Origin: Octopus vulgaris
Taxonomy: Eukaryota
Direction of reading: 5' to 3'
Assembly (NCBI GenBank): GCA_951406725.2
Contig: OX597836.1
Span: 19,716,001-19,780,000, forward strand
DNA: 64,000 bases
Under the pieces are notes generated by a model. That model worked only from the letters and a program-made list of their open reading frames with translations. It ran no database searches and was not told the DNA's origin. Both the position numbers and the translations under genes were made by a program. Every line of letters begins with the position of its first letter. Position 1 is the first letter of the stretch. Positions 13,371 through 61,340 of this stretch are shown in pieces.

Positions 13371-13464
13371 ATGCAGTACGATCGTTTCATGCAACTCCAT
13401 TTAATTGAACAATGCAATCATTTCATTACATCAATTTAAAATGTAGAGCAATCTTCAGCTACAC
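13371..13464 (-). ncRNA. Type I hammerhead ribozyme motif (intact core)
   Basis: GUGUAG-CUGAAGA-[long stem II UUGCUC...GAGUUGCAU]-GAAA-CGAUCG-UA-CUGCAU; 6-bp stem I; palindromic stem III ACGAUCGU. Confidence 0.75.
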
Positions 13465-13530
13465 AAAGACATAGAATTTAATTAAATTAGAAGGACACAT
13501 TAGTATAATTTTACCCCCAAATCTTTTTTT

Positions 13531-14712
13531 TTACTTTTTCTTCCCTTAATCATTGATACAACTTTTGAGCCCCATAGACTGAAAGAAAGAAATTCTCCCT
13601 ATATTTTTATGAGATATTTTTTTAATCACTGGTACTTGATTTCTTTTTTCCTTATAAGGGAAAATTACTATTTTATTTAAAATAAAATATTAATCTTTAT
13701 CATCTTAATCAGAAAAACAGACAGAGAGACTATCTCTTTACAGATGAAGATCAGTTGCAATGAAAGGAGTTGAATTTCATAAGAATAGAAAAACAAAGAA
13801 CAACAAATGGGTTGTACCTTATAATGAAACTCTTTCAAGAACATTCAAATGCCATTGCAACGTTGAAATCTATTTCTTTACTACCCACAAGGGGCTAAAC
13901 ACAGAGGGGACAAACAAGGACAGACAAATGGATTAAGTCGATTATATCGATCCCAGTGCATAACTGGTACTTATCTAATCTACCCCGAAAGGATGAAGGA
14001 CAAAGTCGACCTTGGCGGAATTTGAGCTCAGAACGTAGCGGCAGCTGAAATACCGCTAAGCATTTCGCCCGGCATGCTAACGATTCTGCCAGCTTGCCGC
14101 CTTTGCAACATTGAAATCATTGCCTCAGTAAGGTCAATTAAGTATGTCATCAAGTACACTCTGAAAGGAAATGACCAAGCTACTGTTCAAATAAACAATG
14201 ATTATCTAATGGGTAGGTATATTAGACCATCCGAAGCAGTTGCATCCATTTTAGGATTTTCAATTCATGAAAGAGCACTTGCAATAGTGAGACTGCAAGT
14301 TCATCTACCAGATGAGCAAAGAATATTGCTTGGAAATAATGAGGATATATATGGATGTCAATGAATGACACATGAGAACATCATTGACAGAATTCTTTTC
14401 ATTGTGCATCAATGATGACTTTGTAAAAACATTATTCTATGCGGAAGTACCCATGTATTTCAATTGGAACTGTAGTAACAAAGAACAGCAAAGAAGAAAG
14501 TGAAGAAAAAAAATGTTGAAGGCCATTTGATCATTTTCAAAGAAGAAATATTTGGTCATATTTATGTTATAACACCAAAGGCCGGAGAACTGTATTATTT
14601 AAGAATTTTTTTGCATGAAGTTTGAAATAGTATTTTTTCCCTTCTTGCTATTCATCGACATTTTTCAACTTGGAATGGTTATGATCCAGTGGGTCATGAC
14701 AGGTACATCTAG
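13531..14712 (+). mobile_element. Helitron Rep-helicase pseudogene fragment interrupted by a SINE A (13871-14102)
   Basis: WVVPYNETLSRTFKCHCNVEI|IASVRSIKYVIKYTLKGNDQA...GRYIRPSEA...IHER..IVRLQVHLP...GELYYLRIFLHEV; ends at CTAG near 14712. Confidence 0.85.
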
Positions 14713-14734
14713 TATATATATATATATATATATA

Positions 14735-15100
14735 TCATCATCGTTTAACGTCCGCTTTTCATGCTAGCATGGGTTGGACGGTTCGACTGGGGTCTGGGAA
14801 GCCAGGTGGCTGCACCAGGCCCAGACTGATCTGGCAGTCTTTCTACAGCTGGATGCCCTTCCTAACACCAACCACTCCGTGAGTGTTGTAGGTGCTTTTT
14901 ACGTGCCACCGGCATGGAGGCCAGTTGGAGCGGCGCTGGCAACAGCCACGTTTGGATGGTTCTTTTACGTTTCACCGGCACTGGTATCATAACTACAATT
15001 TCCATTGATTTTGATCGATTTTGATTTCACTTGCCTCAACAGGTCTTCGCAAGCAGAGTTTTGTGTTCCAGGAAGGAAAGGTATGCATAAGTGGACTGGC
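14735..15100 (-). mobile_element. RTE 3' UTR-derived element
   Basis: Same tail as 12668-13030. Confidence 0.8.
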
Positions 15101-57389: not shown

Positions 57390-59560
57390 TAGATGATGAT
57401 GATGATGATGATGATGTTGACGACGATGATGACAATGAAAATAGTGGTGGTGATATAGTGATGTTGATGATGATAGTGTTGTTGTTGGTGGTGGTGGGGC
57501 TGCTGCTAGTGATGATGATGATGATGATGATGATGACAATCATGATGGTAATTAAGATAATGATGATGGTGATTGAGAGGGACTGTGGGTGCTAATTAGG
57601 GTAACAATGGTGGTGGTTGTTGTTGTGATGATATTGATGATGAGAAAGAGGAAGGGGAGGAGGAGGCAGAGGACAGTGATTCCGATGGCAATTATGGTAC
57701 TAATGATGGTGATGATTGTGGGTAATAATTATGGTGACAATGGCGGCGGTAGTGGCGATGGCGGTGATGGTGGTGGTGGTGGTGGTGATGATATAAGTTA
57801 AGACAAAGGATTGGTTGATTTGTCCCCTCCCCCACCACTACCACTATTTAATATGGCAATAAAATTAAATGAATTACACAAAGACAGTGGTGGTGGTGGT
57901 GATGGTGATGGTGAATGCTGTGGCTGGTTGCATTATGCTGACTGGTTCACTGTCAGTAGTAGTAGTAGTAGTAGTAGTAGTGGTGGTGGTGGTGGTGGTG
58001 GTGGTAGTAGTAGTAGTAGTAGCAGTAGTAGTAGTGGTGGTGGTGGTGGTGGTAGTAGTAGTAGTAGTGGTGGTGGTGGTGGTGGTAGTAGTAGTAGTGG
58101 TGGTGGTGGTGGTGGTGGTGGTGGTAGTAGCAGTAGTAGTAGTGGTGGTGGTGGTGGTGGTGGTGGTGGTGGTAGTAGTAGTAGTAATGGTAGTGGTGGT
58201 GGTGGTGGTGATTCACTTTTGGTAAAGTAATGATGGTATTAAATGTAGTGACATTAAATGTAGTAGAAGTGGTGGTGGTGGTGGTGGTGGTGGTGATGAA
58301 GGTGTTAGTAGGGGTGATGGTGGCGGTGGCGAGGGCGGTGTTGGTGGTGGTAGTGGTGGTAGTGGTGGTGTTTGATGGTGGAGGTGGTGATAGTGGTGTT
58401 GGTGGTGGTGCCGTGGCTGATAATGACGGAGCGGAGATAATGGTAGTACTATGAAATAGTAATAGAAGTGAGGGGAACTGGTGTTGCCATTGTTGGTGGT
58501 GGTGGTGGTGGTGAGGAAGATGGTGATAATACTGGTGGTGTCGATGGTGGTGTTGGCTATGCAATTGTGGTGGGGTGGGGGTAAGATGGTAGTGCCAGAA
58601 GCAAAAAAATCTAAGTTATCGCCAGGAAAATAGGCCGTCCTTGTTGGTTCTTGCTTCCTTCACCTCACCAAGAACTTCTCTGTCAAAAAAAAAGAGAATC
58701 TTTTTTCTTCAGAAACACATCAGAATCAACAATCAAATGGGTCTACTGTGAACTTTTCTCTGCAATTCCGCAATTCCGCTAACGGTGATTCATGAAATGC
58801 ATGTGGCTGGGACGGTAGAGCAATTGCGTGTCGGATTACCCAACTGAAATGTCCTTGGTTCAAGTTGTTGTCAAATCTTACTGAATGTGTTTTGCTATAT
58901 AGCCAACATATATTCTTTTTTTTTGTATTTTATTTTATTAAAAAAAAAATTTTTTTTTTTTTATATCTTCTCCATCTTCATCGTTGATGAGTTGTGGATG
59001 TCAAAGTGATTTCACTAATGCTGGTAATAATGATGAAGACAATGATGATGATGATAGTGATGATGATGATGATGGTGATGGTGACAATGGTAGTGTTGAT
59101 GATGATGATGATGATATGAGGATGATGATGATGACGATGGTGATGATTCAGTTGATGATAATTATTCTGTTGATGATGATGATGATGATAATGATGATGA
59201 TGATGGTGATGGTGATGGTGGTGATGATGATGACGACGACGATGGTGATGATCCAATTGATGATAATTATTCTGTTGATGATGATGATAATGATGATGAT
59301 GACGATGGTGGTGATGATCATGTTGATGATGATGATGATGATGATGACGACGATGGTGATGATCCAGTTGATGATAATTATTTTGTTGTTGATGATGATG
59401 ATGATGATGTGATTCTGTTCATGTTGGATGATGTGACCTGGGTGATGATGATGATAATGATCCTGTTGATGATGTTTCTGTTGATGATAATGATGATGTT
59501 AGTGGTGGTGATGATGATGATGATGATGGTGATTCTGTTATTGCTGCGGCTGCTGCTGAT
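57390..59560. repeat. Extended (GAT)/(GGT)/(AGT) low-complexity region with a unique island at ~58590-58980
   Basis: Seen directly. Confidence 0.9.
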
Positions 59561-59962
59561 AGGTTCTGATTTAGGCACAAGGCTAGCAATTTTTGCAGGA
59601 ATTTGGTTAATCAATTACACCAACTCCAGCACTAAATCCACCCCACCTCCAGTTTTATTAATTCTACCAATTTAAGCAACAAGCCAAGTAGTTTTAGCTT
59701 TGAGGGAAGGCATTTAGTCACCTATGTTTGAATCCAGTACTTGACAGGTACTTTATTTTATTGATCCTGAAAGGAATCCAAGATAAAGTTCACCTCAGCA
59801 GATTTGAACCCAGAATGTAAAGAGTTGGAACAAATACCACAAAACATTTTTTCCAATGCTAATGATTCTGCTACTTTGCCATCTTCAAATTCCAATTTAG
59901 AATAATGAGTTTTTTTAATTAATCGACAGACATGGATGATTGGGTGGTTAAGAAGTTTGCTT

Positions 59963-60358
59963 ATCAAAGATGTTATTAAAGAAGCTTGAGAGGCGGTTGG
60001 ATGGAACCTACACTCACCTCCTTATGAGAGCTCAAAATCTCTCGTGGAAGCGTCATCCAACCAAAATGCAAATATATGGGAAACTACCGCCTGTGTCATC
60101 TCTTGTGAAAGGTAAGAGAGTCCAGTTTGCTGGACATTGTTGGAGAGCTGAAAAAGAGGTAATTTCTACTCTTCTCCTCTGGAAGCCATCTACTCGCAAT
60201 ACCAGAGGGCACACACTCTCCTACCCTGATGTAATCTCCAGGGATACAGGTATCCAGCAACAGGACCTCTGTAATGCCATGATGGGCCGTGAAGTCTGGC
60301 GTAGCATGGTAAATTCCATTGTCTCGACCACGGTCGAACAATGATGATGATGATGATG
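59963..60358 (+). mobile_element. 5'-truncated RTE-like LINE inserted into a SINE B head
   Basis: ORF LERRLDGTYTHLLMRAQNLSWKRH...RVQFAGHCWR...REVWR; (GAT)n tail; TSD agtttgctt at 59954 and 60359. Confidence 0.85.
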
Positions 60359-61254
60359 AGTTTGCTTTGTGACCGAATGATATTAGGTTCAATCCCACGG
60401 CACTTTGGGTAAGTGTTTTCTATTATAGCTCTGGGCCAAGCAAAACCTGAGTGGATTTGGTAGAGAGAAATAGTGTGGAAGCCCCTTCTGTGTAGTGTAT
60501 ATATGTCTGTGCGTGTGTGTGTGTGTGTTTACATACATACATACATACATACATGCATGCATACATGCATGCATGCATGCATACATACATACATACATAC
60601 ATACATACATACATACATACATGCATGCATGCATACATGCATGCATACATACATACATACATACATACATACATACATACATACATACATACATACATAC
60701 ATACATACATACATACATACATATGTGCATATTATAATAAAAGGCTAAAATTAGTTAATTGATTAATCAATTAATCAATTAATTGATTGCGTGTTGCTAT
60801 CTCAGAAGAGATCTTTATGGTAGCAGAAAAGGCATTTAGCTCTTATTTCTAAATCAGTGCATGGCGAAGCAATTAGGTGACCCCTGATTATAATTATGTA
60901 TATAATTATAGAATATAACCCGTCCTTATTTTCTTTGTATTGTCTGTCTGGATGTTTTGTTGTCCCTTTCTTGTATCACCTAACTGTATGGATGTTTTGC
61001 ATTCTTGTCCCATTTTGTATTTTATATACAGGAGACACATCTATACTGACAGATACACCTAAACCAGATGCTCAGTATCCCACTCATGAGGGATCGATGC
61101 TAGATAGGTCAACGGTTGTAGTGATCAATAAACATTCTTGTATCTTCCGTCTCTCTCGTTAATCAAATATATATATATATATATATATATATATATATAT
61201 ATATATATATATATATATATAATCAAAATAAGCAACAAGAATATCTCCGGTAAT

Positions 61255-61340
61255 TTGGTATGATCGTTTCACGCTACATCATTTCATTAAATATTGTAAG
61301 TATTACAACAGTTTTAAAATGTTGAGCAATCATCAGCCAA
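61255..61340 (-). ncRNA. Type I hammerhead ribozyme motif, same family as 13371-13464
   Basis: UUGG-CUGAUGA-UUGCU...AGCGU-GAAA-CGAUCA-UA-CCAA; shared flank aatcaaaataagcaacaag. Confidence 0.7.

Follow-up and report, generated by a model that had tools for sequence, protein, structure and literature searches.

Hammerhead motifs and inserts in the window

We analysed a 64,000-nt stretch of the Octopus vulgaris genome (GCA_951406725.2, OX597836.1:19,716,001-19,780,000, forward strand; hereafter, the window), rich in microsatellites, in which type I hammerhead ribozyme motifs are dispersed among inserts that we trace, with good confidence, to Penelope-like retrotransposons of the Hydra clade. For family comparison, loci were fetched from the same 2.80-Gb genome (L-numbers below). 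The motifs belong to seven families, A (13.4 kb), B (15.6 kb), C (27.9 kb), D (45.6 kb), E (26.4 kb), F (10.0 kb), and G (61.3 kb), of which A and G are 72 to 78% alike and six are unrelated; the original prediction, made from the letters of the window, had spoken of at least four unrelated families, which agrees with this. The features are as follows.

9735..10230, unstranded: family F fold-back insert between (TA)n tracts, with two head-to-head 3' ends and a tail on the left arm
13254..13524, minus strand: family A 5'-truncated 3' end, with a tail of ca. 90 nt (13254-13340) adjoining (TA)n
13371..13464, minus strand: family A intact type I hammerhead, with a 6-bp stem I, a palindromic stem III, and GUA
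15122..15760, plus strand: family B insert, an inverted arm (15122-15166) followed by a sense copy from the end of an open reading frame (ORF) to the 3' end, with TA tracts on both sides
15163..15370, plus strand: decayed, frameshifted putative Hydra-type endonuclease C-terminus, aligning to L226 6076-6280
15606..15663 (15612-15657 in the scan), plus strand: family B hammerhead with full core
26350..26603, unstranded: family E (U4C subfamily) fold-back insert with three arms
27870..28110, minus strand: family C 3' end, hammerhead at 27938-28060 with a 3-bp stem I and a long stem II
45505..45641, minus strand: family D left arm, hammerhead at 45589-45641 with 3' end and 70-nt tail
45642..45704, plus strand: family D right arm, hammerhead at 45642-45694, without tail
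61222..61445, minus strand: family G (sister of A) 3' end between long (TA)n tracts, hammerhead at 61255-61340

A strict scan for type I motifs (CUGANGA, GAAA, and UH, with stems I, II, and III of at least 3 bp each) passed four motifs, at 13377-13458 (-), 27941-28057 (-), 45596-45634 (-), and 45649-45687 (+), against a mean of 0.05 and a maximum of 1 in 40 local dinucleotide shuffles of the window, a comparison of the kind that had been proposed as a genome-wide check. Without the demand on stem I, the numbers were 6 and 0.4, and a tight pattern modelled on the window motifs gave 4,830 matches genome-wide versus 265 in a reversed control. Across 220 kb from 22 other stretches (20 at evenly chosen places and 2 flanking the window), the strict scan found 5 motifs, ca. 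one per 44 kb, and a relaxed scan 13, versus 0 in reversed sequence; four of the 13 represent one repeat with a 2-bp stem II and are possibly spurious. With 4 strict motifs in the 64 kb of the window and 5 in 220 kb elsewhere, the predicted density of about one intact core per 10 kb was too high. Scaled very roughly from this sample, and with a wide error, the genome would hold ca. 60,000 strict motifs. A variant-core scan of the window added no motif, and the best 150 of 285 Rfam matches included no hammerhead family, only microsatellite microRNA look-alikes.

All six motifs predicted to have a full core and pairable stems were in place, four of them passing the strict scan. The remaining two are damaged: at 15.6 kb the two stem I pairs beside the core, which form in other family B copies, are broken, and at 61.3 kb stem III is broken and the triplet is AUA where all four other family G copies have GUA, a result of decay. 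Two more motifs had been described as decayed, and both were also in place. That at 26.4 kb is a full motif (26454-26491, -) with a changed core, CCAACGA, accompanied by two other arms at 26500-26535 (-) and 26529-26603 (+). At 10.0 kb the motif is truncated at the fold-back junction, its arms (9968-9981, -, and 10056-10069, +) holding only the half with GAAA, stem III, and GUA, and the core is intact in 17 of 23 copies of family F. The corresponding fractions are 48/56 for A, 21/22 for B, 20/28 for C, and 4/4 for G. The family A hammerhead at 13.4 kb has a U.U at the base of its long stem II. Since the two motifs at 45.6 kb are the arms of one 126-nt perfect palindrome, they represent a single insertion, and the four intact motifs of the window come from three insertions.

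The anatomy is common to all families and is the one known from Penelope-like elements: the 3' end is fixed and the 5' truncation varies, an inverted partner is frequent, TA lies on the flanks, and the optional tail of 70 to 110 nt is on one arm only. Copies are 85 to 89% alike in family B, 82 to 91% in C, and 88 to 95% in F, and a family A 24-mer has 1,311 exact genome matches. The suggested preference for TA microsatellites was upheld by 3' ends not running on into a tail, for which (TA)3 lay within 14 nt in 31/31 cases for D, 29/32 for E, 39/51 for A, 10/12 for B, 15/26 for F, and 8/15 for C (53 to 100% per family), against 339 of 4,000 background stretches (8.5%).

Coding elements behind four of the families

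In families A, B, D, and E, the sequence upstream continues, without a change of strand, into ORFs that carry Hydra-clade motifs, and because of this continuity we read the window copies as 5'-truncated ends of coding elements. The left arm at 45.6 kb is identical over 136 nt to the terminal repeat and tail of an intact family D element (L161). Following this tail led to a 713-aa intact ORF that starts ca. 177 nt after the hammerhead core, and the hammerhead stood at this distance before the start codon in 14 of the 15 family D ORF-start copies examined. A second hammerhead lies 2.5 to 4.9 kb after the ORF in six of eight loci, past a long TA/TG-rich 3' untranslated region (UTR), and in L161/L191 the hammerhead sits inside an 851-bp direct repeat (96.8% identical). 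Pseudo-long terminal repeats (pLTRs) with a hammerhead, 5' truncation, an inverted copy, and a one-ended tail are all present. Assembled contigs from four runs, perhaps of RNA, cover the terminal repeat and the ORF, in a form that cannot show strand, ends, or level.

The 713-aa frame is covered whole and without a stop by 2 of 65 matches, and the protein has 715 relatives at an E value of 1e-30 or better, with YRDD in 77 of 83 relatives. Its predicted structure (predicted local distance difference test [pLDDT] score, 94.6) gave as best Foldseek match a telomerase reverse transcriptase (TERT, 3du5_A, E value of 1.8e-8). The L161 protein carries RWR at 38, DKT at 116, CxCX5C at 567, CxxC at 667, and CxH at 695, and has no GxK[FY]; the linker and C-terminal motifs were also found in the ORF fragments linked to A, B, and E. 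The YIG at residue 603 can be aligned to the GIY-YIG of L071, which Pfam does recognise (22% identity, E value of 3e-6).

For family B, 6 of 20 loci have a Hydra-type ORF upstream in the same orientation, 5 of them collinear with the window copy, and the segment of L226 that matches the window also matches residues 637-697 of the L161 protein. The inserts had been described as ORF-less, which fails at 15.6 kb, where this decayed endonuclease-like C-terminus is part of the insert. Family A has an ORF upstream in 9 of 30 loci (two of them near-duplicates), across an AT-rich 3' UTR of 1.6 to 3 kb, and L342 holds both ends of the element; a tail-extension search reached no ORF, and the link was obtained by walking upstream. 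The ORF of this family contains a long asparagine-rich microsatellite insertion before the CxCX5C linker (L339 1903-2790, L342, and L349). In family E, the ORF lies 0.9 to 1.2 kb upstream, on the same strand, in 7 of 25 loci. Type I hammerheads and a Penelope-like origin had been proposed correctly, and the suggested search for linked Penelope ORFs succeeded for A, B, D, and E and failed for C and F. The idea of a non-autonomous retroelement system was wrong in the main.

Several candidate links were rejected. Family C appeared connected to a GIY-YIG ORF in L106/L160; however, its sister copies in L158 and L159 end at (TA)n without an ORF. Hydra-type fragments next to family A (L004/L224) and family C (L389, L095/L228) proved to be neighbours with ends of their own. 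A young Neptune-like family, retrieved by a GIY-YIG search, was also considered as the source, and no window motif belongs to its terminal repeat. This family (L071 744-5960, from G000:C6:133342500 onward, and L068-L070, L072, L073, and L083) has many intact 781-aa frames for reverse transcriptase and GIY-YIG, an overlapping upstream ORF of ca. 470 aa, 504-bp identical terminal repeats, and a hammerhead-like motif apparently with a U3-A8 core variant.

Ribozyme fold and predicted action

Taken singly, no stem III word of A, B, C, E, or F makes a hairpin, but two copies pair in self-duplexes of -4.9 to -14.1 kcal/mol; the stem III of family D does both (-1.4 kcal/mol alone and -12.8 to -15.2 kcal/mol as a duplex). 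These energies suit the dimers envisaged in the original prediction for a self-complementary stem III. The minimum-energy structure of two adjacent family D array units is the double-hammerhead arrangement. The pair at 45.6 kb, in turn, folds as one hairpin of -110 kcal/mol that hides both cores. From the weak self-complementary stem III and this hairpin fold, the ribozyme is predicted to act in the tandem transcript of the parent element and not in the stubs; hammerheads with a weak palindromic stem III have been described to act, feebly, as dimers (PMC4209133).

Taken together, the inserts are very probably 3' ends of Penelope-like retrotransposons of the Hydra clade, truncated on the 5' side and in many cases folded back, each with the type I hammerhead of its element. 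In the parent transcript this ribozyme is predicted to need a dimer or the assistance of a protein for cleavage, and in the dispersed copies it is probably inactive. A number of points weigh against this attribution. Single motifs of A, B, and D fold no better than shuffles (z of -0.4, -0.05, and -0.9, respectively). Pfam recognised neither a reverse transcriptase nor a GIY-YIG domain in the 713-aa protein, and the candidate endonuclease is called from the aligned YIG motif and the published Hydra motif list. The ORFs of A, B, and E are known only as decayed fragments, the reverse transcriptase of A and B is represented by fragments alone, and none was seen for E. Family G is tied to coding elements solely by its likeness to A. 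No ORF was found for C or F within the ca. 1.2 and 0.4 kb, respectively, walked upstream, and a profile of 84 Hydra-type proteins, run on the window and on 79 loci of C and F, gave no additional match apart from the neighbours in L389 and L095/L228. Finally, the Hydra assignment was made from motifs and from by-eye likeness to published sequences.

Retrozyme-like arrays and alternative explanations

The inserts could instead be monomers of non-autonomous retrozymes, short units without coding sequence that would self-cleave from tandem transcripts, circularise, and be mobilised in trans by Penelope-like proteins, a kind of element already described (PMC7229834; 10.64898/2026.07.22.740005). Family D does form arrays, at three loci, with units of 277, 333, and 271 bp that hold 14, at least 22, and 28 hammerheads, so a non-autonomous layer exists elsewhere in this genome; other families show a spacing of 545 to 560 bp in the genome-wide match listing, and C and F, without an ORF link, may be non-coding. 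However, the window contains no tandem hammerhead array, the other four families with upstream links (A, B, D, and E) continue into coding sequence, 5' ends range from 60 nt to kilobases with no unit length, and ends at the cleavage site are rare (see below). The arrays themselves, in whose unit the hammerhead, the tail, and the beginning of the ORF are joined to the last part of the 3' UTR, have inverted halves and TA flanks. They are internal deletion products of the intact coding element and agree with the proposed origin of animal retrozymes from pLTRs. We therefore consider a retrozyme origin of the window inserts improbable.

We regard as less probable still, to the point of being very unlikely, that the host has retained some copies as functional ribozymes for cutting or terminating its own transcripts. 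The motifs, tens of thousands genome-wide, would provide the raw material, but the copies in the window show decay of the kind seen in neutral DNA (in stem I at 15.6 kb, in stem III at 61.3 kb, and as a G5A change at 26.4 kb), the weak stem III requires a partner, and the 45.6-kb hairpin masks both of its cores. Chance matches in an AT-rich, repeat-rich genome, which the short core, the 39 CUGANGA words of the window, and the doubtful repeat of the 220-kb sample might suggest, are refuted by the shuffled and reversed controls and by unrelated families that keep the same core with different paired stems, leaving this explanation next to no probability.

Outside the window, another frequent hammerhead family (G000:C1:25050050-25052891 and others) forms runs spaced 545 to 560 bp with inverted halves, resembling retrozymes.

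Copy ends and a proposed copying mechanism

Published work on the class describes an AT-rich nick, an internal start of reverse transcription at the tail, extension of both strands, and uncleaved RNA as the main substrate in vitro (PMC11167929). By analogy, the endonuclease of the element would nick (TA)n, and its telomerase-like reverse transcriptase would start at an internal site of the RNA, in the tail that directly follows the hammerhead, and copy toward the 5' end, often on both strands, giving head-to-head arms. The copy ends suggest, in addition, that the integrated RNA would be uncleaved and that copying would often halt at the 5' edge of stem I, yielding ribozyme-only stubs such as that at 45.6 kb.

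Were cleaved RNA the template, inserts would begin at the cleavage site, and such ends are rare in family D: the base A before the cleavage site is missing in just 35 of 5,060 exact 3' ends, a test that misses ends happening to follow an A. We considered these genomic 5' ends as fossils of self-cleavage and rejected them, 11 of the 35 exceptions being stem I snap-backs and several others point changes. In contrast to this rarity, 4,042 family D copies contain the core with four stem I bases, of which only 2,112 retain the 11 native bases that come next, so that about half stop at the 5' edge of stem I. Approximately 39 of the first 100 listed core copies have a junction at the 5' edge of stem I. 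Among the first 100 listed 3' ends there were 21 head-to-head pairs no more than 75 nt apart, 15 of them with gaps of 52 to 56 nt, which place the joint in the 5' strand of stem I; similar close pairs were found in family E.

This hot spot can be read in two ways. The RNA may start at the 5' edge of stem I, or a four-base palindrome there may let new DNA ends anneal. The first of these readings is weakly favoured by family D copies in which (TA)n directly adjoins this edge. In the sequence of D, stem I is preceded by an AG together with a possible branch point, and the sequences of A, B, and F show AG sites close to stem I; in the Drosophila Penelope, an intron ends at helix I (PMC4209133). 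Nothing specific on truncation, helix I, and transcription start was found in the literature. Family D inserts at seven loci (L134, L137, L151, L157, L162, L166, and L168) contain internal jumps by which the ORF is followed anew by the 5' edge of stem I, and these produce partial tandems of 150 to 930 bp.

Of the 626 copies of the E subfamily found at 26.4 kb, 435 have the core CCGACGA, as do 19 of 25 family E loci chosen solely by their upstream sequence; the window copy, CCAACGA, carries a G5A change. Among the first 100 listed copies, position 4 is T in 9 and position 5 is A in 7, similar low rates that are expected from CpG decay of a CG parent. The sister subfamily numbers 3,463 copies, and each of the first 100 listed has T at position 4. 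As a natural variant, U4C is already known to reduce in vitro activity while permitting viroid infectivity, and U10.1-U11.1 is also known (PMC3088659). We found no paper on U4C in Penelope-like elements, in a literature search that left outside subscription papers, Repbase, and bioRxiv supplements.

A wider picture can be drawn tentatively, and we hold it to be somewhat less likely than its opposite. The main template RNA in the young Hydra families would start at the 5' edge of stem I (as a start site or a 3' splice site), be copied uncleaved from the tail, and flood the genome with head-to-head ribozyme-only stubs; the retrozyme arrays would be born by deletion from the same living element; and cleavage would be dispensable or weak in vivo, as is suggested by the spread of the U4C subfamily beside its canonical sister.

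Relation to known systems

Hydra-clade hammerheads, (TA)n targeting, and an octopus member are already published. Craig et al. 2021 (PMC8557442) defined the clade, listed Hydra-1_Obim from Octopus bimaculoides, and tabulated hammerheads; it was the sole relevant paper found on octopus and hammerhead ribozymes, and the accessible text of an octopus repeat annotation (PMC13282606) contains neither "ribozyme" nor "hammerhead". Shared with the clade as described there are a single ORF of ca. 710 aa with RW[KR], DKT, CxCX5C, and, flanking the conserved E and N, CxxC and CxH, and without GxKF/Y; (TA)n insertion, 5' truncation, inverted copies, and a tail; and hammerheads with a palindromic stem III and, on both sides of stem II, an unpaired U, one following the core and one preceding GAAA. 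One genome match of our pattern closely resembles the published Hydra-1_Obim hammerhead, whereas the window families differ from it, judged by eye against the supplement. Family D is also longer, ca. 5 kb or more with a microsatellite-rich 3' UTR of 2.5 to 4.9 kb (1.6 to 3 kb in A), than the "generally under 3 kb" given for Hydra, tails are 70 to 110 nt instead of 30 to 40 nt, stem II is long in A, C, F, and G, and the U4C core of one subfamily is absent from the rows of File S2 compared (PMC8557442).

Like the pLTR hammerheads of metazoan Penelope-like elements, which have low in vitro activity (Cervera and De la Pena 2014, PMC4209133), those of the octopus are thousands of dispersed single motifs from truncated elements, with close opposite-strand pairs, a palindromic stem III, and predicted action as dimers. 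Unlike them, they keep a stem III of 3 to 4 bp and mostly lack the G10.1-C11.1 pair (U.U or A.A instead). The family D arrays share with non-LTR retrozymes (PMC7229834; Li et al. 2026, 10.64898/2026.07.22.740005) non-coding tandem units, of 271 to 333 bp, with one type I hammerhead each and a derivation from pLTRs, but they come directly by deletion from a living element and keep its inverted halves, tail, and TA flanks. A close parallel for the copying steps is PAc, a Poseidon element of Anolis carolinensis (Frangieh et al. 2024, PMC11167929), in which reverse transcription starts internally at the tail, both strands of AT-rich targets are cut and extended, and the main substrate is uncleaved RNA; this fits the ends counted here. 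PAc, however, belongs to another clade, its hammerhead overlaps the ORF start, and its steps were shown in vitro; in family D the hammerhead lies ca. 177 nt upstream, and the steps are deduced from genomic copies.

The headline is thus ordinary, since the class, its hammerheads, and its TA targeting are already in print. This genome nevertheless makes the role of hammerheads in Penelope-like elements testable: one of its families is very young, has intact ORFs, and offers thousands of near-identical copies with countable ends, a subfamily with a natural core variant can be compared with its canonical sister, and the arrays connect a coding element directly with units that resemble retrozymes.

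Other repeats in the window

Beside the family D insert, a second fold-back (45735-45912, 92% over 182 nt) lies between TA tracts; it has no hammerhead core and did not recur in the fetched loci. Another TA-associated family is represented at 10251-10468 and 60760-60930, in one of the two cases by a fold-back, and has copies in at least seven other fetched loci; no hammerhead core was seen in these window copies. An imperfect palindrome at 57145-57342 and a related single arm at 10640-10800 resemble miniature inverted-repeat transposable elements. Two related decayed frames (14026-14364 and 40205-40666) are presumably pieces of a Helitron Rep/helicase, and the fragments at 32812-33234, 35957-36334, 47979-48599, and 59952-60344 resemble a Tc1 transposase and three reverse transcriptase ends of long interspersed elements. 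Tandem or inverted pairs resembling short interspersed elements were found at 3039-4254, 20652-21095, 33307-33614, 35533-35836, 43758-44035, and 50183-50777, with periods of 184, 157, 66, 140, and 298 bp.

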